Source: an uncultured Bacilli bacterium (GTDB lineage Bacteria; Bacillota_I; Bacilli_A; RF39; UBA660). From it: 64,000 bases of DNA. Location of the stretch: contig CALVXM010000001.1 in NCBI GenBank assembly GCA_944371305.1, forward strand, positions 39,600 to 103,599, read 5' to 3'. The notes beneath the pieces were generated by a model that was not told the origin of the DNA, searched no databases, and saw only the letters and a program-made list of their open reading frames with translations. This document shows positions 4,725 to 59,307 of the stretch, piece after piece. Each line of letters begins with the position of its first letter. Position 1 is the first letter of the stretch. The position numbers and the translations under genes were made by a program.

Positions 4725-5564
4725 ATGGGAAACGATATATATCAAAATGCCATGTGTAAAATTGAACAAGATCAAAAATGTAAACCTTCTTGTGTAACTT
4801 GCGTCGGAGCAACCGGACCTACTGGGCCGACCGGACCTGCTGGTCCAACTACAGTAGCAGTTGGACTTACAACTACTGGTATACCGGGTTCTAACGCTAC
4901 TGTTACCAATGCAGGAACCAATACTAATGCTATTTTCGATTTTGTTATTCCTGCCGGTGCGACCGGTGCAACCGGGCCGACTGGACCTACTGGACCACAA
5001 GGTATTCAAGGTATTCAGGGTATTCAAGGAATAGCGGGAGCAACTGGAACCCCTGGAGCGACTGGAGCGACTGGACCTACTGGGCCTGCCGGAGCATCTG
5101 GTGCAACTGGAGCGACTGGACCTACTGGACCAACTGGACCTAGTATTACACCAACATTTACAATAGGGACTGTTTCAACTGGAGCCCCTGGTTCTACAGC
5201 TACCGCTTCTATAACTGGTACATCTCCTAATTTCTTCTTAAATTTAACTATACCTGCTGGAGCGACTGGACCTACTGGAGTATCTGGCGCTACTGGACCT
5301 ACTGGACCTGCTGGAGCATCTGGCGCTACTGGACCTACCGGGCCTGCTGGAGCATCTGGCGCTACTGGGCCTACCGGACCTGCTGGAGCATCTGGTGCTA
5401 CTGGACCTACTGGACCTGCTGGAGCATCTGGTGCTACTGGACCAACTGGACCTGCTGGAGCATCTGGTGCTACTGGACCTACCGGACCTGCTGGAGCATC
5501 TGGTGCTACTGGACCTACCGGACCTACTGGACCAACTGGACCAACTGGACCTACCGGACCATAA
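4725..5564 (+). CDS. Collagen-like triple-helix repeat protein (Gly-X-Thr repeats); no signal peptide and no C-terminal globular domain
   Basis: Long runs of [16 protein letters not shown]; short non-collagen N-terminus with Cys cluster [10 protein letters not shown]; ends in GPTGPTGP then stop and an intrinsic terminator. Confidence 0.75.
5275..5526 (+). repeat. Tandem 36-bp repeat (about 7 near-identical units, ggagcatctggYgctactggRccWacYggRcctgct) encoding [12 protein letters not shown]
   Basis: Direct reading of sequence; units differ only at synonymous third positions; explains spurious antisense ORFs 4686-5027 and 5244-5579. Confidence 0.85.
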
Positions 5565-5600
5565 TATATAGCAATTCATAAACTTTTAAAGATTACCTTA

Positions 5601-7869: not shown

Positions 7870-8575
7870 TTATGAAAGAATCGCCCTTGAACTATAATAG
7901 ATAGAATTACTACCGTTGTTATAGAAAAAAGCAAATATTCCACCGCCAGGTCCATTAGCATAATGACTGCTACGAAGAACCCAAGAAGTATTAGAATTTA
8001 AAGAATATGAATGCTCTTCATACCAACCACCAATTATAGTTCCTAAAATTGTTAAAGTTTCTTTAGTCGCATCACCTAATTTACCTCTTGAATGCGTTAA
8101 ATTATTAGTTGCATCATATGTATAACTATCATAATACTTAGTTACTAAAACTTGCACCTGAAGAAAGGAAATTACCATTGGCATTAACCATACTACCCAT
8201 TCCATATTCTTAATCACGTGATAATCGCCATTAATTTTATAATTATTAGCAATATTTTTTATCTAATTTCTCGCTGGTTTAACAAGGATTTAAAACTACA
8301 CCTTAATCTTGATGATAAATGACATTATGCAAGTAATTCTATTTCCAAAAGTTTCAATATTAGCTAAAAATACTTCGTTGATAACTGGTATTTGTCCTTC
8401 AATTTGCTCATTATAATAAGTTTCTCTAATCGCTTTAGCATATCCCTCAATACTTCTTTTATTCGCACTATCGCGTGACTGTTCAATTACATTTAATTAG
8501 TATCGCAATTAAAGCAATAATAGCTAATATGATCATAACTGCTAATAATTCGACTAACGTAAACCTTCTAACCTC
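7870..8575 (-). pseudogene. Degraded prepilin-type N-terminal domain gene (pilin-like family member A): no start codon, Gly(-1) replaced by Arg, at least two frameshifts
   Basis: RC of 8500-8575 reads RRFTLVELLAVMIILAIIALIAIL then stop; the next frame continues EQSRDSANKRSIEGYAKAIRETYYNEQIEG...; ORF 7870-8217 carries the C-terminal part (..SWVLRSSHYANGPGGGIFAFFY) resembling the C-termini of the other paralogues. Confidence 0.6.
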
Positions 8576-21783: not shown

Positions 21784-22020
21784 ATCATTTCACCAAGTTT
21801 ATTATATAACAAATAAAAAAAGATTACAATAAAATAGTTTGCTATAACTAATTTAAATATAAAAAAAGATAAATTTTAACTTTATCTTTTTAAGTAAATA
21901 AAATTAATTCTCACCAAAAATATCATCAATAACATTTTCTGGAATATGATAAAATTTTTGATCGAAAATAATATATGGGTGACTTCCCCCAATACTATCT
22001 GTAGGGTCTACCGGTTCTAT

Positions 22021-22410
22021 TCATTCTCCATTAACTTTAAAATTTCCATCACTTTGTAATTCAAATTCATAGTTATTACTCTTTATTTTTAATTTGGTTA
22101 CTTTACCATTTTGATATTTGACTTCTAAGACTTCCGCATTCCCTAAACTCACCATTTTGCTAACATCATCAATGGTTACTCCATCATCATCATTACATAT
22201 ATCTGTACTTTCATCTAATTGATTCTTCATTGCTGATGTCGCACAATAATTATTAATGCCACTTAATATCATACTTGCTTCTGATTTTCCCGCACTCTTT
22301 CTAGCATCTTCAATCACATTTAATATGATTGGGGTTGCTATTAGGGCTATTATAGCTAATATTATTATGACTGCTAATAATTCAATCAATGTAAATCCGC
22401 ATTTCTTCAT
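22021..22410 (-). CDS. Prepilin-type N-terminal cleavage/methylation domain protein (pilin-like family member B, the only intact copy); start at ATG 22410 after a GGAGG Shine-Dalgarno (ORF track extends to a GTG at 22425)
   Basis: MKKCGFTLIELLAVIIILAIIALIATPIIL: class III signal peptide with G(-1) F(+1) E(+5); about 129 aa. Confidence 0.8.
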   Translation of the reverse strand: MKKCGFTLIELLAVIIILAIIALIATPIILNVIEDARKSAGKSEASMILSGINNYCATSAMKNQLDESTDICNDDDGVTIDDVSKMVSLGNAEVLEVKYQNGKVTKLKIKSNNYEFELQSDGNFKVNGE

Positions 22411-22518
22411 AAGTATTCTCCTCACTTTCTTATAACTTATTTATTTAATTAATATATTCTAATAATAAGTTATATTTTTGATATAAGGTATTTCTTTTAA
22501 TTGCGATATTAACAAATA

Positions 22519-22590
22519 TTATTTAGTTGATATCTTTTTCATTCTACGTGTGCTATTCGCTAATAAAGTTTTTACTTTATTTTCTAACAT
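22519..22590 (-). CDS. Candidate leader peptide ORF (23 codons, MLENKVKTLLANSTRRMKKISTK) upstream of pilin-like gene B
   Basis: Conserved with a second copy at 59093-59161 (MIENKVTAKLANSTHGGGQKPL), at about 80% nucleotide identity; preceded by a conserved promoter. Confidence 0.35.
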   Translation of the reverse strand: MLENKVKTLLANSTRRMKKISTK

Positions 22591-22616
22591 CTTACTGCAC
22601 CAACTTTCTATATTTA

Positions 22617-22645
22617 ATTATATATTATTTTTTGCTTAAAAACAA
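22617..22645 (-). promoter_or_regulatory. Sigma-70-type promoter TTGTTT-N17-TATAAT driving the leader ORF and pilin-like gene B
   Basis: Exact hexamers with 17-nt spacer read on the minus strand; the same arrangement is conserved upstream of paralogue D. Confidence 0.5.
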
Positions 22646-22668
22646 AATTTTATGAAAAATAGTTCAAA

Positions 22669-23169
22669 CTATCTGTTTGAACTAATTAAAATATCCTCTA
22701 AATTTAGTCTTGTTCTTGGTAATGGATTTTCATCTTTAACACCAATAGCAATTGCTGATACTAATTCCATTTCAACACCAACTAATTCTTTAACATAATC
22801 TTCAATTTTTTTAATATATCCAATCCATAAACTTCCTAAATTTCTATTTTCACATTCTAATAAAATATTTTCAATTGCTGCTCCAATCGATAAATGATTA
22901 AAATATTCATCGCTACTATTATAGACTAAAATTAAATAAGGAACATTAGCTATTACTTCTGCAGTTTTATTAGGTCCTACTAATTCAATCATTTTTGAAC
23001 TAATTTTAGTTTTTACATCCTGTGAAACAATTAAAAAACGCCAAGGTTGATTATTTTTGGCTGATGGGGCCATCAAACCAGATTTTAAAATATCTTTGAT
23101 TATATCAATTGAAATATCTTCATTTTTATAAGATCTAATACTTCTTCTATTTTTTATTTCCTTTAACAT
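22669..23169 (-). CDS. Nitroreductase family protein
   Basis: N-terminal KNRRSIRSY motif typical of NfsB/FRP-type nitroreductases; 166 aa. Confidence 0.7.
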   Translation of the reverse strand: MLKEIKNRRSIRSYKNEDISIDIIKDILKSGLMAPSAKNNQPWRFLIVSQDVKTKISSKMIELVGPNKTAEVIANVPYLILVYNSSDEYFNHLSIGAAIENILLECENRNLGSLWIGYIKKIEDYVKELVGVEMELVSAIAIGVKDENPLPRTRLNLEDILISSNR

Positions 23170-29437: not shown

Positions 29438-30507
29438 TTAACCTATTCTAAAAGCCGGAGCAACACCATTAATATCAATAGCATGAGGATCATTCCAATT
29501 GCCATCAAGCATAATACGGTAAAAAGCAGTATTAAGGTGAGCAAAAGCAGAACGTGTCCACCAATAACTTTCAAGTTCTTGATGTCTTTTTATTGCTCCT
29601 TTATAATTACTAGTGCTTACATTATTCATTTCATAATAATCTAATTGTCTTGTATTGTTATCGCTCGTATCATTACTTATAATATTACTTGTTCCATTTT
29701 TACCATAGATTTCTTTCGTAGCTAACAAATATAATTTGTCGTTAGTTATAAAATTTTCTAAATCTCCACTACCATGACTAGATATTACTTTTGTATCTAT
29801 TATTACATTTTTTAAATCTTCCGGTAACGAATTATATATATCATTTTTTAAAAATATATATAGTTCACTTGCAGGATATCCCCCTATATTAGTTAAAGTT
29901 GAATTTATTTTACGTAATGTGATTATATCAACAAATTCAATCACAAATCCACAAGCAGTTTGCGAAAATTCATTATTACTACATTCAGATGGCGTTGTAA
30001 TATTGGCTATTCTTACCGTATATGTACCAGCATATTCTCCAGTTAAAGTTACTTCTTTTGTATCTCCTACTTTATATTTACTCATATCCCCATTTTTTAC
30101 GGCATTAGCTATTGTTTTCCATGAATCATCTTTAAATGATACTGGAGTATGATTTTTACATTCTTCATCATAGCGAAATACATATTGATTATTAATTTCA
30201 TCCCATTTATATAATACACAACCTGTCATTTCTTTATTAGTCACTGGATTTATCGTCTCAATTTCTAAAAAGCCACTACTTTTTAATTCATTTAAAAATA
30301 TCGCATTTTCTTCGGTTGAATATCCTAAACTATTTTGAGTACTATAATTATGAGCTGCTTCTAAAATACTATCAATACTTCTTTCTAATGCTGCTTGCTT
30401 ACTATTTTCGATTGATTTATCGACTATTGGAAAAGTTATTAAAGCTATTATTCCAAGTATTATTATGACTGCTAATAATTCAACTAATGTAAATCCTTTT
30501 TTAACAT
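29438..30507 (-). pseudogene. Prepilin-type N-terminal domain protein (pilin-like family member C, about 355 aa if corrected) interrupted by a 1-nt frameshift in an A6 run at codon 4
   Basis: ATG 30507 gives MLKKDLH-stop; shifting one base after the A6 run (plus-strand T6 at 30497-30502) gives ..KKGFTLVELLAVIIILGIIALITFPIVDKSIENSK... continuous with ORF 29438-30244; perfect promoter TTGCTT-N17-TATAAT upstream. Confidence 0.6.
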
Positions 30508-38971: not shown

Positions 38972-41900
38972 TTATCCAATTTTTAAAAATTTTGTATCGA
39001 CAATTGAATATAAATATAGATTAATTACTTTATTAGTTTTAGTTGTGACAAATTCTTTATAGCCATTTAATTGTTTTAAATATTTATCATCCTCAACATT
39101 TTTTAATTTATAATCGATTATATCAATATGATCATCGTACTCTAACATAAGATCGATAATTCCGTGATATTTTGTATCATCCTTAATATACATAAATTCA
39201 TATTCTTTATATATTTTAGCATATTTAATATTCTTTAAAACATCACTTTTTAAAAAATTATTAATTTTTTCTTGATAAAATTTATTTTCTAAATTTATTT
39301 CTTGATTAAAATCTAAATTTTCTAATAATTCGTGAAAATATGTTCCAAATTCTAATATCTTTTTCTTATCTTTAGTAATTACTTCATTTATTTTTTTAGA
39401 AAAACTATTTTCTTTTATTTCTTCGTTAGGAATATTAATATTTTCGACTTTTAATTCTTTAAATTCTGAAATATCATAATTATTTTCTTTGATCAAGTTA
39501 TAATCTTTAGTTAAATTAGGAATTTCTACTTTAATTAAATATTTTTCTAATCTATTTTTAACTGAATTAATAATATCTAAAAAACTACGATATTGTTCTT
39601 TAAGATTATTTTTTAATACTAATTCATTATTAAAGCTATTTATGTCACTATATGGTATAACCATTATCATTTTTTCTTTGGCTCTTGTTAGTGCCACATA
39701 AAATAACCTTATTTTTTCTGATATTTCTTCTTTTATATAATCATCTTTAATTAGTGTTTTATAAATAGTATTGCCGATACCTTCATCAAAATATGGTGTG
39801 ATTATACCATATTTATTACTATATAAAAACTTTTCATTCAACTCACTAATATTAAAACTTTTATATAAATTAGCAAAATAACAAATATGATATTCTAAAC
39901 CTTTTGACTTGTGAATTGTCATTATTTTAACGGCATCGCCTAAATCATTATTGATTTGATATTTTATCTGATAATTTTCCCTAATCATCTTGTCTAAATG
40001 GTTAGAAAATAAAACAATATCATAATCAATTAAATTATTTGCCATCTCAATTATCTCGTCAATTTTAATTAAACTCGCTTCAATATTACCAATAGTAATT
40101 AATTTTTCATAAAAATTAAACTTCTTTAAAATCTCATTAATTATATAAGAAGGACTAAAATCTAAAGATATCTCTTGAGCTTTTTTAAATAAATCACTAT
40201 CATAATAATTTTTATTTAAAAAATATTTAAAAATGATATCGTCTTTTTCATTATAAATAAAACTTCGCATAATACTTATAAATAAATATCTAAAATCACT
40301 ATCATATTCTTTATTTTTAACTTTTATCACAAATTTAATTAAATTATTTAAAACATAAATATCTTGATCATTGTTCATCTTTTCTTCTTTTAAAATATTT
40401 AAAGGTATTTTATGATATTCAAATATTTTTTTAAATAAATCAAAATTACTAGAGCGATCCAATAAAATAACAAAATCACTATAACGAACATTTCTTAATA
40501 TTAATTCATCCTTGTCAAATATTTGATAATTATTATCGATTTTATTTTTTATATCACGAGCAATTAAAAAACACTCTACTTCATCTTTACTAAAATTATT
40601 ATTGTCTTTTTCATATTCTAGTATCTCAAGATTATAATCTTGCTTAGTTGCTCCTTCATTGATATAAGAGTCATTACCAAATATCATTTGGTGTGTCTTT
40701 AAATAATCTGCTCCTCCAATATCATCATTCATAATTAAATTAAAAATTAAATTAATATCATCTAAAACTTCTTTTCTTGAACGAAAATTTTTATTTAAAT
40801 CGATTTTAATTCCACCAATTTTTTGGGAATAATTATCATACTTATTTTTAAAAATATTTGGGTTCGCATTTCTAAAGCGATAAATTGATTGCTTAATATC
40901 TCCAACCATATAAACATTATTAGAAGAAATATATTTAATAAATTCTTCTTGTAAATCGTTGGTATCTTGGTATTCATCGATCATAATTTCTTTAAAATTG
41001 TTTTTTAATTCTAAAGCGACATTATCATTTTCTTTAACTATTTTAATTGCAAGCAATGCAATATCATTAAATTCATATAAATCATTTTGTCTTTTATAAA
41101 AATTAATTTTTTTAGTTAATTCTAAAATAATATCAATTATAACTTTAACATAATCTTCAGTTTTTAAAATTGTCTCTTTTATCTTATCGACGCTATCATA
41201 ATTACATAATTCATTAATAGATTTAATTTTTTTATTGAGTTTATCTTTAATTTTTTTAGCCTCATCTAAAGAACCACGCGGTAAAGGTGGTAATTTTAAA
41301 ATAGAATTGTTTTTTATATCAAGATAAATTTCACTATTTAAAAGCGCATTTATTACTTCATATAATTTATTTAAATATTCACTATCCACATAATTACTTA
41401 ATTCACCTATTATATCTTCAAGTGATAAAATTTGCTTTTTAATATAAATTAAATAAGAATTTATATCTTTATCAATATCACTAAATTGATAGTTTTCTAA
41501 ATAAGCAATTTTATCGATTAACATATCTAATTTATCATTTATAGTTAAAATTTGTTTTCTAATTTCTTTATCATCTTTAACACAAAAATCATTAATTAAT
41601 TTTTTAAAATTAGTGTCATTTTGATATTTATTTTCAAATATTTCATCTAAAAACTCTTCTTTTTTTATTTTAACAACTGATTCCTCAATAATATTTACAT
41701 CTTTTGCTATATTAATTAAATAATGATATTTCTTAACAACCGATAAAGCAAAACTATCGAAAGTTGTAATATAAGCTGCATCAATCATATCTAATTCTTG
41801 AACTAGATTTTCTTTTTTGATTTTTTTTCTAATTCGTTCTTTCATTTCACTAGCTGCAGCTTTAGTGAAAGTTAAAATAAGTAATTCGTTAATATGAATA

Positions 41901-50602: not shown

Positions 50603-50677
50603 TGGAGCAAGTGAGCGGAATCGAACCGCCGTCCCAGCCTTGGCAAGGCCGTATACTAACCGCTGTACTACACCTGC
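50603..50677 (-). tRNA. tRNA-Gly (anticodon GCC), CCA encoded
   Basis: RC folds as cloverleaf: acceptor gcaggtg/cacttgc, anticodon stem cggcc/ggctg, loop ttGCCaa, T-loop ttcgatt, 3' tCCA; 75 nt. Confidence 0.9.
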
Positions 50678-56689: not shown

Positions 56690-56739
56690 ATCATCACCTC
56701 AATTATATAACATATTATAACATATTTTAGAATAAAAAA

Positions 56740-56915
56740 AAAGTCCAAGAATGCGGGCCCTTAACGATAAAACCTAGTCTCTACCAGGTGGGCATCACAT
56801 CATCAATTTTAGGATTCTCAAAATTAATTGAGCCTTCAACACCATCGATGAATTAGATTCCCAATATTCGTTAATCAGTCGGTTTTTCTAAATGAGCTTA
56901 TCGCTATCCTTAGAC
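56740..56915 (-). ncRNA. Candidate small/structured RNA or tkt 5' leader (about 175 nt, GC-rich island, extended -10 TGgTATAAT at 56922-56930, 3' T9)
   Basis: Local GC far above flanks (gggcccgc, cccacctgg); no ORF; family not identified; no clean terminator hairpin found. Confidence 0.2.
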
Positions 56916-56965
56916 AATTATATTATACCATAAATTATTAAAAATATCATAATTTTAAATATTTT

Positions 56966-57943: not shown

Positions 57944-58927
57944 TTAAAAGGAATATGCACGGACGTCGGTGGTATTCGTCGGGTTGTTGTAGAAGTTGCC
58001 ATAGCCATAGACGCGACGAACGTAAGACGAACTATATCTATTTCCTAACCAAAAATAATCTTTTATATCTAAATATGAATTAGTTCCACCTGCTCTTACA
58101 TATTGATTTTCATCTAATAATCCTACTTTTTTAGTTACTGTTATTTCATCGACATCTGTATATATTCCTACATTAAATGTATTGTCTTTTATATTATTTT
58201 GAATGCTACCATCTAAACTATTATAAAAATATTCATTTAACCAATTATTGATATAACTTGCTTCATATTCTTCTTCTGTTTCCCATACATCATAAGCTGG
58301 ACTAATTGCTGTCAATGGTTGTTGAGATACCAATAATAATGTATTCTCTTCTGTATCAATTTCTACTATTCGCCAATGATGACCCCCATACCATAAATAA
58401 TTATTAGTAACTTCGTCATTTGTACCTTTATAATAATATATATTACTATTTGTTTCATCTTGCACTAATCCTTTGGTTCCAACTTGTTCTAATAATGTTG
58501 ATATTAAATTTGTCTCTGGGTCCTCTGGTAGCTTGACACCACATTCTTCTTCATCAATGGAAAAACTTCCATCACCACATAATGTAAATTTATGAGTATT
58601 ACTATTGACTACTAAATTTGTTACTTTACCATTACTGTATTCTACTTCTAATACTTCGGCATTTCCTAAACTTACCATCTTACTTACTTCTTCAGTTGTT
58701 ACTCCATCGGCACATATATCTTCTGTTCCATTTAATTGATTTTTTACTTTACTAGTAGCACAGTAATTATTAATGCCACTTAATATCATACTTGCTTCTG
58801 ATTTGCCCGCACTCTTTCTTGCATCATCAATGACATTTAAGATAATTGGTGTGGCTATCAAAGCTATTATAGCTAATATTATAATAACTGCTAATAATTC
58901 TATTAACGTAAATCATTTTTTCTTCAT
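57944..58927 (-). pseudogene. Prepilin-type N-terminal domain protein (pilin-like family member D, about 327 aa; N-terminal 120 aa about 85% identical to member B plus a roughly 170 aa C-terminal extension) carrying an in-frame TGA at codon 5, exactly the Gly(-1) position
   Basis: ATG 58927 after a GAGGAG Shine-Dalgarno: ATG AAG AAA AAA TGA TTT ACG TTA ATA GAA TTA TTA = MKKK-stop-FTLIELLAVIIILAIIALIATPIIL...; paralogue B has TGC GGA at the same place. Confidence 0.6.
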
Positions 58928-59092
58928 AAACATTCTCCTCACTTCTATTATGTCTTATCTTTATATTGTCTATTCTATAATTTTATTTTAACTTATATTA
59001 GATTATAAGGCAATTATCTTTTTTAATAATATGTGACATTTTTGATGTGAGGTAATTTTTTTATTTTTAAATTAAACAAATAACAATTTAAT

Positions 59093-59161
59093 CTATAAAG
59101 GTTTTTGCCCCCCCCCATGTGTGCTATTTGCTAATTTGGCTGTTACCTTATTTTCTATCAT
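59093..59161 (-). CDS. Candidate leader peptide ORF (22 codons, MIENKVTAKLANSTHGGGQKPL) containing a G9 (plus-strand C9, 59108-59116) homopolymer
   Basis: Paralogous to 22519-22590; the G9 tract encodes GGG within the ORF. Confidence 0.35.
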   Translation of the reverse strand: MIENKVTAKLANSTHGGGQKPL

Positions 59162-59189
59162 CTTACTACACCTACTCTTTCTATTAATA

Positions 59190-59218
59190 ATTATATATTA
59201 TTTATCAATTTAAAACAA
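59190..59218 (-). promoter_or_regulatory. Sigma-70-type promoter TTGTTT-N17-TATAAT driving the leader ORF and pilin-like gene D
   Basis: Exact hexamers, 17-nt spacer; conserved with copy B. Confidence 0.5.
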
Positions 59219-59307
59219 GATTTTATTAAATAAAATTTTGGAATACCAAAAAAATGTAGATATCTCTTTTTTGACATATCTACATTTAATATATTACTTC
59301 GATTCAA

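Follow-up and report, generated by a model that had tools for sequence, protein, structure and literature searches.

Neisseria pilC carries a poly-G tract in its signal-peptide region and undergoes homopolymer phase variation, and in both the ermC leader peptide and the coat/replicase long-range interaction of phage MS2 a sequestered ribosome-binding site is unmasked by translation. Phase variation of homopolymers in 5′ coding regions is described more generally (PMC5354566). In Helicobacter pylori a G-repeat of variable length in the leader of tlpB/hp0102 tunes translation and is targeted by the small RNA RepG (PMC8295292), and in Haemophilus influenzae heptamer repeats form an RNase III hairpin in the 5′ untranslated region (UTR) of hmw1A (PMC12721329). 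Here we analyse a 5′ module that precedes the pilin-like genes B and D in a stretch of 64,000 nucleotides from an uncultured gut Bacilli bacterium (positions 39,600 to 103,599 of contig CALVXM010000001.1, assembly GCA_944371305.1). The whole stretch is referred to as the window, coordinates count from its first letter, and both loci are read from the minus strand. Modelling of the module transcripts leads us to propose, at a probability of about 0.4, that a phase-variable upstream open reading frame (ORF) gates translation of the pilin that follows it. The host genome has 26% G+C and uses the standard genetic code, as judged from the long genes of the window, which hold no in-frame TGA.

Pilin-like gene B (22021-22410, minus strand) encodes a protein of 129 residues, MKKCG|FTLIELLAV..., which has the features of a type IV prepilin (MKKCG|FTLIELLAVIIILAIIALIATP, with a match to PF07963). 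The identical protein occurs on 20 metagenome contigs, with leaders that are almost the same. The gene is preceded by a 258-nt intergenic region starting just past the intrinsic terminator of a nitroreductase gene, and the hairpin of this terminator (22660-22684, minus strand) forms the upstream edge of the module. A preliminary description of the locus had placed a TTGTTT-N17-TATAAT promoter and a 23-codon ORF upstream of pilin B, and both are present on the minus strand. The predicted distal promoter, P1, has its -35 hexamer at 22640-22645 and its -10 hexamer at 22617-22622. It had been called perfect, but the -35 hexamer agrees with TTGACA at only three of six positions and the site was not listed by the consensus scanner. 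The P1 site is retained in every copy of the module, in L106 as TTGACA-N17-TAATAT. The ribosome-binding site of the upstream ORF, AGAAAGTTGGTG (22598-22609, minus strand), reads AGAAAGTAGGTG in other strains and copies. Its pattern, AGAAAG(T/A)(T/A)GGTG at 7-9 nt ahead of the ATG, is conserved across all copies and agrees at 10-11 of 12 positions with AGAAAGGAGGTG, the extended anti-16S consensus.

The 23-codon ORF of B, MLENKVKTLLANSTRRMKKISTK, spans 22519-22590 on the minus strand, with its stop 108 nt upstream of the pilin B ATG (22410); the 42 nt at its start have no chance match anywhere in the window. As drawn in the preliminary description it is a truncated form of a 40-46-codon ORF, cut by an in-frame TAA. 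At the full family length the frame reads MLENKVKTLLANSTRRMKKISTK*YLLISQLKEIPYIKNITYY* (22459-22590, minus strand; 44 codons including the stop, broken at codon 24), and its C-terminus fits the pattern ...(P/S)(H/Y)IKN(V/I)TYY* of a family of 40-46 residues. Within this extent lie a hairpin, UUAGCGAAUAGCA / UAUUUGUUAAU (22498-22568, minus strand), the stem of which surrounds a G tract in other copies, and the hexamer CCTTAT (22483-22488, minus strand), a degenerate form of an anti-ribosome-binding-site element that reads CCTCAC in other copies. The ribosome-binding site of pilin B itself, GTGAGGAG, is at 22418-22425 (minus strand). Beyond the TGA of pilin B, at 21904-22020 (minus strand), 39 more codons in the same frame (IEPVDPTD...) are similar to the sequence with which D continues (LPEDPET...), and B may be, to judge from this similarity, a truncated derivative of a longer pilin-DUF6273 gene.

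The block shared by B and D is the distal half of a 5′ module of ~250-310 nt found at no fewer than nine pilin/DUF6273 loci of this uncultured gut Bacilli lineage, and is thus not private to the two genes for which it was first noted. Further loci were recovered through closer and more distant pilin homologues and through one DNA-pattern scan of metagenomes. Seven lie outside the window: L084-87 (after bipA), L088 and L092 (after ylbE), L089 and L090 (after a cation ATPase gene), L093, L094 and L096 (which have a common upstream flank, with no pilin after the module in L094), 'E', comprising L100-105 (after a peptidase M19 gene), and L106 and L107 (after ftsZ). Within the window, nhmmer finds copies at B and D only. 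Several of these loci co-occur with locus B in the same samples and at equal coverage, and we therefore take them to be paralogues in one species or in very close relatives.

It might be argued that the block is a chance resemblance in AT-rich DNA. Promoter-like hexamers are as common in shuffled sequence (six sites in the B region against 3.9 +/- 2.1 expected) and are for that reason no evidence by themselves. The nhmmer matches of the module, with E = 1e-39 to 1e-61 over ~210 nt at nine loci (1e-35 to 1e-61 over all the copies scored), refute this explanation.

The order of elements in the module begins with P1, followed by the ribosome-binding site and ATG, about 15 codons (ML[E/Q/G]NKVT..LANSTH), the G tract and the sequence CC TTT ATA GAT TAA. 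A spacer containing CCTCAC comes next, then a second, proximal promoter P2 (TTGACT or TTGCCT, N17, TAAAAT), a UTR of ~60 nt, GTGAGGAG and a pilin gene with a short leader (MKKxG|FTLIELL). A 46-nt piece carrying P2 is absent from B and E, leaving P1 as their sole recognisable promoter. Neither the G tract nor P2 had figured in the preliminary description.

At locus D, P1 is predicted from TTGTTT at 59213-59218 and TATAAT at 59190-59195 (minus strand). As reported earlier, the B block is repeated here at about 80% identity: the two loci are 80% identical in the promoter part, 80% in the first 15 codons and 71% in the remaining leader. The upstream ORF, MIENKVTAKLANSTHGGGQKPL (59093-59161, minus strand), has 22 codons and is in a short frame because of a tract of nine G residues (59108-59116, minus strand), the longest G/C homopolymer in the 64-kb window. 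With G5, G8 or G11 the ORF would be in its long frame and extend over 59023-59161 (minus strand) to a TAA at 59023-59025, as in the L098 allele, which gives 44 residues. The CCTCAC of D (59047-59052, minus strand) forms the Pro-His codons of the long frame and complements the GTGAGG of the pilin ribosome-binding site, GTGAGGAG, at 58935-58942 (minus strand). P2 of D, TTGCCT-N17-TAAAAT (58985-59013, minus strand), lies in the 46-nt piece missing from B.

The pilin-DUF6273 gene D (57944-58927, minus strand) is a pseudogene in the window strain. TGA replaces GGA, the Gly(-1) codon, at 58913-58915, so that the product does not qualify as a prepilin, and ~0.83 kb is deleted internally by comparison with the intact 567-residue allele of L098. 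The alleles of the locus were reached through homologues; both lesions are also present in L097, whereas L098 is intact at the same locus. Between strains the gene body is ~93% identical and the flank 98%. Look-ups of the D product from two alternative start codons gave no match. An alternative code (25 or 4), suggested by the TGA, was ruled out by the long genes free of in-frame TGA and by the GGA of another strain.

The origin of the module, which also went unnoticed in the preliminary description, is apparent from related metagenome-assembled genomes (MAGs, 'uncultured Bacilli/Tenericutes'), in which 72 loci encode relatives of B, with up to ~10 copies per genome. When the module was sought in the GTDB species representatives that carry these pilins, only weak local matches were obtained, and they led to genes in which a poly-G tract is fused to the pilin. 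In this subset the pilin gene starts ATG-(I/K)KLTNSKT-G(n)-HLLNNA|FTLIELLAV with n = 5-14, the tract lying within the reading frame of the long leader. The gene is in frame in L036 (G9) and out of frame in L029, L031 and L044 (G11) and in others. L012 and L053 have the same long leader with GGTGGC or GGAGGC replacing the homopolymer and, because they retain it without the homopolymer, the long leader of the fused genes is shown to be coding.

The block aligns with the 5′ ends of these fused genes over a span that opens with the -10 hexamer, takes in the ribosome-binding site, the ATG and KL(A/T)NS.. and closes with the G tract, and comparisons with L029, L031, L036, L038, L041 and others give z-scores of 3.5-7.7 against dinucleotide shuffles. 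P1 is homologous to the TAGACA-N17-TATACT of the fused genes. After the tract, CC TTT ATA GAT TAA of the module faces GCC TTT ACT TTA ATA GAA TTA (AFTLIEL) of the fused genes and is, by this alignment, a decayed AFTLIEL; with the FTLIELL core lost, the upstream ORF itself does not qualify as a prepilin. We conclude from the alignments that a former long-leader poly-G pilin gene supplied the block, which comprises its promoter, ribosome-binding site, ATG and the beginning of its leader-coding sequence, and that the putative leader peptide is the severed start of a phase-variable pilin gene. In this lineage, the same comparison indicates, the 5′ end has been detached from its pilin body and now precedes another ribosome-binding site and a pilin with a short leader. 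P2 is homologous to the TTGCAT/TTGCAA-N17-TAAAAT of short-leader pilins in the related MAGs, and P2 together with the proximal UTR resembles the promoter and UTR of such genes (e.g. L008 and L014). Two former pilin genes thus seem to meet in the module, the upstream one cut to its first few dozen bases.

Given this clear homology to a pilin 5′ end, it is quite possible, if far from certain, that the block is simply an inert relic with a working promoter: a gene fragment left by a long-leader poly-G pilin that lost its body. P1 may still fire in such a case, the short ORF, G tract and CCUCAC would be functionless, and the copies would be young duplicates homogenised by gene conversion. Recombination among copies is indicated by two observations. 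L096 and L094 share a chromosomal site, where a pilin comes after the module in L096 and unrelated sequence does so in L094. L106 and L107, the same locus from two samples, are distinguished by a clustered swap (GTAACT/GTCACA) whose variants match alleles of other paralogues. L096 is moreover a mosaic of L089-like, L084-like and L094-like parts. These comparisons indicate that gene conversion acts on the module copies, as a homogenised relic would have it, and decay is common in the family, from the remnant of A and the frameshift of C described below to the nonsense codon and deletion of D.

Mean pairwise identity over seven module copies is 0.85 in the P1 region, 0.89 in the first 15 codons of the upstream ORF and 0.84 in the rest of the leader. 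In the first 40 mature pilin codons it is 0.675 at third positions and 0.945 at first and second positions. The whole module is therefore more alike than the silent sites of the adjacent pilin N-terminus, a comparison (0.85 against 0.675) that is awkward for an inert fragment, since gene conversion would have to end exactly at the pilin start. The upstream ORF, for its part, is not set apart in conservation from the non-coding parts of the module. The first 15 codons give no coding signal, with 6/6/2 variable columns at codon positions 1/2/3 and a ratio of non-synonymous to synonymous variation (pN/pS) of 0.83. The conserved peptide M(I/L)ENKV..LANST of the preliminary description thus shows little sign of evolving as a peptide, and both the missing codon periodicity and conservation no better than that of non-coding neighbours are as expected of a relic.

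Beyond this point the G tract determines the frame of the upstream ORF. Three strains differ at the D locus, with G9 (window), G6 (L097) and G5 (L098), while ~460 nt around the tract are otherwise nearly identical, so that tract length differs between strains against unchanged flanks. With G6 or G9 the ORF has 21-22 codons; with G7 (L084, L093) it has 23 and ends ...TFID*; with G5, or with the interrupted tracts of L088, E and L106, it has 44-46 and ends ...LPHIKNVTYY*. From these copies we conclude that of the three frames one continues for 40-46 codons up to a conserved stop and that the other two end within a few codons of the tract. Both window copies are, in their sequence, short forms: B has lost its tract and contains the in-frame TAA, and the G9 of D is out of frame. 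If a homopolymer of at least ~7 is taken as the mark of a contingency locus, D has one and B does not. The three full-length, intact pilin genes seen (557-582 residues) all have the long frame (L098, L100-105 in 6/6 samples, and L106), and both D pseudogene alleles have a short one; this association rests on very few genes, one of which, L106, was located by way of its upstream ORF.

That the long frame encodes a functional small basic protein of 40-46 residues, phase-variable, standing beside each pilin gene and made only when the tract is in phase, is in our view unlikely. Public protein sets hold 11 clusters of the 41-45-residue long-frame product and three more diverged representatives of 40-48 residues, two of which share both family ends and differ by in-frame indels. 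These 14 clusters with conserved ends (KLANSTH ... IKN(V/I)TYY*) favour a protein, and the diverged versions of 40-41 residues, in which both ends are preserved through in-frame indels, tell also against an inert relic. In the part after the tract the long frame has 7/8/11 variable columns and a pN/pS of 0.45, the other two frames having 0.72 and 1.21. Among seven distinct copies it has no internal stop, against 19-23 in the others, and its stop position is retained through a TAA/TAG change. All four variable sites of the last nine codons are at third positions (p ~0.01, n = 4). The excess of third-position changes over the whole post-tract part is not significant, however (11/26, p = 0.22), and the coding signal there is weak and at most suggestive. 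Third-position changes would moreover be equally neutral for an RNA helix (C-G to U-G), the N-terminal third lacks a coding signature, and the sequence derives from a frameshifted pilin fragment and former non-coding DNA. A Pfam search with the 44-45-residue product gave no family, and among 1.84 billion representatives a profile search added just three small relatives, besides low-complexity matches in large proteins. The sample is in any case biased to open frames.

The preliminary description had suggested a cis-acting leader peptide or RNA. The conserved ORF with its strong ribosome-binding site (AGAAAGTAGGTG, 9 nt ahead of the ATG) bears out part of this suggestion, and a masking helix, described below, makes a cis-acting role plausible; an attenuator receives no such support. 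Classical leader-peptide attenuation, or a riboswitch-like RNA controlling transcription into the pilin gene, would fit a short ORF with a ribosome-binding site inside a long leader and the conserved hairpin around the tract. This hairpin is a predicted stem of 12-16 bp, UUAGCAAAUAGCA / UGUUAUUUGUUUAA, which surrounds the tract and the two short-frame stops. It has z-scores of -1.2 to -4.3 (B -1.9, D -2.3, L084 -2.1, E -4.3), is kept in B despite the lost tract, and may, if the modelled fold is right, explain the conservation of 'LANS'. No intrinsic terminator was found in the B leader (22411-22659) or the D leader (58928-59260), and Rfam 15 gave no relevant match in the whole window at the gathering score, nor anything but noise in both leaders at E <= 10. 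The fold of the whole B leader is unremarkable (z = -1.5), there are no runs of regulatory codons, and the C-terminal half of the peptide changes with the frame. We regard attenuation as very unlikely.

A feature that may point to a different kind of control is a second predicted helix. One strand of it is CCUCAC with the UC and AUGUC that come after it; the other is made up of GACAU, GA and GUGAGG, of which GUGAGG is the pilin ribosome-binding site. The probability predicted for core pairing of CCUCAC with this site is 0.99-1.0 in D, L097, L098, L089, L093, L096 and E, and lower in L088 and L084 (0.58-0.73), B (CCUUAU; 0.34) and L106 (0.26), so that it is 0.58-1.0 in nine of the 11 modelled transcripts. 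Local fold z-scores of the region are -3.3 in E, -2.5 in D and -1.7 in B. Predicted pairing of the ribosome-binding site is 0.64-0.94 in P1-type transcripts and 0.20-0.58 in most P2-type transcripts. The CCUCAC segment is inside the upstream ORF in the long frame only. CCTCAC occurs six times in 128 kb (both strands), two of these being the B and D ribosome-binding sites read in reverse complement. In the long frame it encodes Pro-His, and wherever a copy has His there (TAT stands in B) the codon is the rare CAC, which the genome uses 32 times against 214 for CAT. For an inert relic these features require coincidences: an open frame of 28 codons in stop-rich DNA (~0.08-0.2), a 6-nt complement of a ribosome-binding site within that frame (~0.01-0.05), and retention of the rare CAC codon.

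We therefore propose, with the probability given at the outset, that the phase-variable upstream ORF gates pilin translation. Transcripts from P1 would fold so that CCUCAC (with AUGUC) pairs with GUGAGG (with GACAU) of the pilin ribosome-binding site, and translation would be blocked. Ribosomes in the long frame of the upstream ORF would cross CCUCAC and open the helix. Slippage in the G tract would in this way turn pilin translation on and off from ~170-220 nt away, phase variation being kept at a distance, whereas in the sister lineages the tract is inside the pilin gene itself. Copies with P2 could bypass the gate; B and the 'E' locus carry P1 only. Locus B combines an intact pilin gene with an upstream ORF interrupted by the TAA, a lost G tract and a weakened anti-ribosome-binding-site element, and on this sequence pilin B would be either weakly constitutive or silent. 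The most far-reaching form of the proposal is a remote switch, in which the G tract in a 45-codon upstream ORF derived from a severed pilin start decides read-through of the anti-ribosome-binding-site, and hence translation of the pilin/DUF6273 protein, and in which some 10 such loci per genome would give a changing subset of expressed genes. This form we put forward tentatively.

Several observations weigh against a frame-dependent gate. In most copies P2 is situated downstream of CCUCAC and ahead of the pilin ribosome-binding site, so that P2 transcripts would escape the gate, and the promoters, transcript ends and upstream-ORF translation that the model invokes are predictions. No variation in tract length across samples was seen at E (six samples), L084 (four) or L089 (two), and several intact loci are stably short-frame (L084-87, G7 in four samples; L089/90). 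The masking helix shows no compensatory covariation, its changes being one-sided, C-G to U-G. It has exceptions in L084 (mismatch GUGAAG) and in P0258, P0247 and B (S-Y or P-Y for P-H), and its chance probability is understated because it was noticed only after the folds had been viewed. The 40-48-residue clusters are a biased sample, since short-frame copies are too short for gene calling. Among loci found independently of the upstream ORF about one-third have the long frame, which is the neutral expectation, and four of the nine loci (B, L088, L094 and L106) have an interrupted or lost tract. These last two points, together with the nonsense codon in B, are readily understood if the fragment is an inert relic.

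Several side observations concern the module, its relatives and the other pilin paralogues. Of four Logan contigs beside D, three (L080, L081 and L083) stop 127 nt past the SLT gene, at the module start, and L082 stops after 25 nt; none of them yielded information on the tract. Presumably the repetition of the module breaks these contigs and, because it breaks short-read assemblies, the copy numbers of the module in MAGs are probably underestimated. A direct repeat, TCACAT-N8-TCACAT, was considered as a protein-binding site and rejected, its second copy not being kept as DNA (GTCACA, GTTACA, GTAACT, ATAACT). Antisense ORFs of 29-42 residues across the block were regarded as by-products of AT-rich sequence. 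A conserved motif, AAAWTTTYC(G/C)-(CG/TG)3-5-GTAATTT, lies just upstream of the -35 hexamer of pilin promoters in related MAGs (L011, L012, L015, L016, L019, L020, L035, L037, L038, L042, L052, L058 and L099) and is absent from the window. Its alternating purine-pyrimidine core (CGCGCGCG, TGTGTGTG, CGTGCGCACG) is conspicuous in genomes of ~26-30% G+C and may serve as a site for a regulator or as a dinucleotide-repeat switch. Short stem-loops (e.g. GGAATAGAAAAATAGAAATATTCC and AAAGATAATAGTCTTT) near the predicted 5′ end of pilin mRNAs in L012, L015, L016, L024, L028, L030, L035, L052 and L054 may be stabilising 5′ hairpins. In L056 (BRZ_DM bin25) an in-frame TGA occurs early in the long pilin leader (ATG GAA AAA TGA TTG ...), and a later possible start gives MSG|FTL.

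Paralogue C (a pilin N-terminus and DUF6273, ~350 codons) had been described as having a simple promoter. Its leader is indeed short and simple, but the gene itself is out of frame with its ATG at an A6 run (30497-30502, in the stretch 30491-30507, minus strand), and ATG TTA AAAAAG GA.. would give MLKKGFTLVELL if the run were A7. A similar A-run frameshift is present in L010, from a related MAG; that of C could be phase variation, decay or an assembly error. Paralogue A (~7900-8572, minus strand) is a degraded pilin remnant with an FTLVELLAV-like stretch, several stops and no start codon. DUF6273, the C-terminal domain of C (29441-30490) and D (57947-58861), has been linked in the literature to targets of diversity-generating retroelements (hypermutation) in phage receptor-binding proteins. 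Elsewhere in the window, long collagen-like GXT triplet repeats (GGA CCT ACT ...) at 4800-5600 form an island of unusually high G+C in 26% G+C surroundings. The sole Rfam matches in the window are 6S RNA (56738-56919, minus strand; 67 bits) and a tRNA gene (50606-50677, minus strand).

If the gate proposed here is correct, a contingency locus can outlive the loss of its original reading frame, the repeat acting through an upstream ORF and a masked ribosome-binding site, a combination that was not found in the literature searched on that point. It would also suggest that an uncultured, small-genome, spore-forming lineage of gut Bacilli with many pilin-DUF6273 genes varies its surface stochastically. 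Even as a relic, the module is a clean example of a gene fragment kept as a promoter-plus-ORF unit. It carries a warning for annotation too, as 'genes' of 44-46 residues will be called or missed at module loci according to homopolymer length.

Comparison with the described systems places the B and D loci between several of them. As in phase variation of the Neisseria pilC type, a strain-variable G run near the start of a reading frame sets that frame, and the related MAGs have exactly this arrangement in the prepilin leader. In the window lineage, by contrast, the tract lies 170-220 nt ahead of the pilin ATG, in a distinct upstream ORF. The host there is an uncultured gut Bacilli bacterium of low G+C, the family has many copies, and on/off switching is a prediction. 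The downstream genes are type IV prepilins (class III, PF07963), in which G/A|FTLIELL and a hydrophobic helix follow a basic leader. It is from a leader of this kind that the upstream ORF derives, but, with CC TTT ATA GAT TAA as the relic of the FTLIELL core, it is not a pilin. The H. pylori tlpB leader likewise has a length-variable G run in the 5′ leader rather than in the regulated gene, acting post-transcriptionally, as is proposed here; there the repeat binds a trans-acting small RNA, whereas the read-out proposed for the present module is the upstream ORF's frame. At H. influenzae hmw1A the repeat is transcribed in a structured 5′ UTR and affects adhesin expression in cis, as we propose for the pilins, but it consists of heptamers, acts through RNase III processing and involves no upstream ORF, whereas the present repeat is a mononucleotide run in a hairpin within an upstream ORF. 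With ermC and MS2 the module would share a downstream ribosome-binding site paired with a segment inside a translated upstream ORF and opened by ribosomes. The pairing is predicted here, and control would be by a heritable frameshift switch in place of drug-induced stalling or obligatory coupling. Overall, the B and D loci would combine homopolymer phase variation of the pilC type with unmasking of a ribosome-binding site of the ermC/MS2 type.

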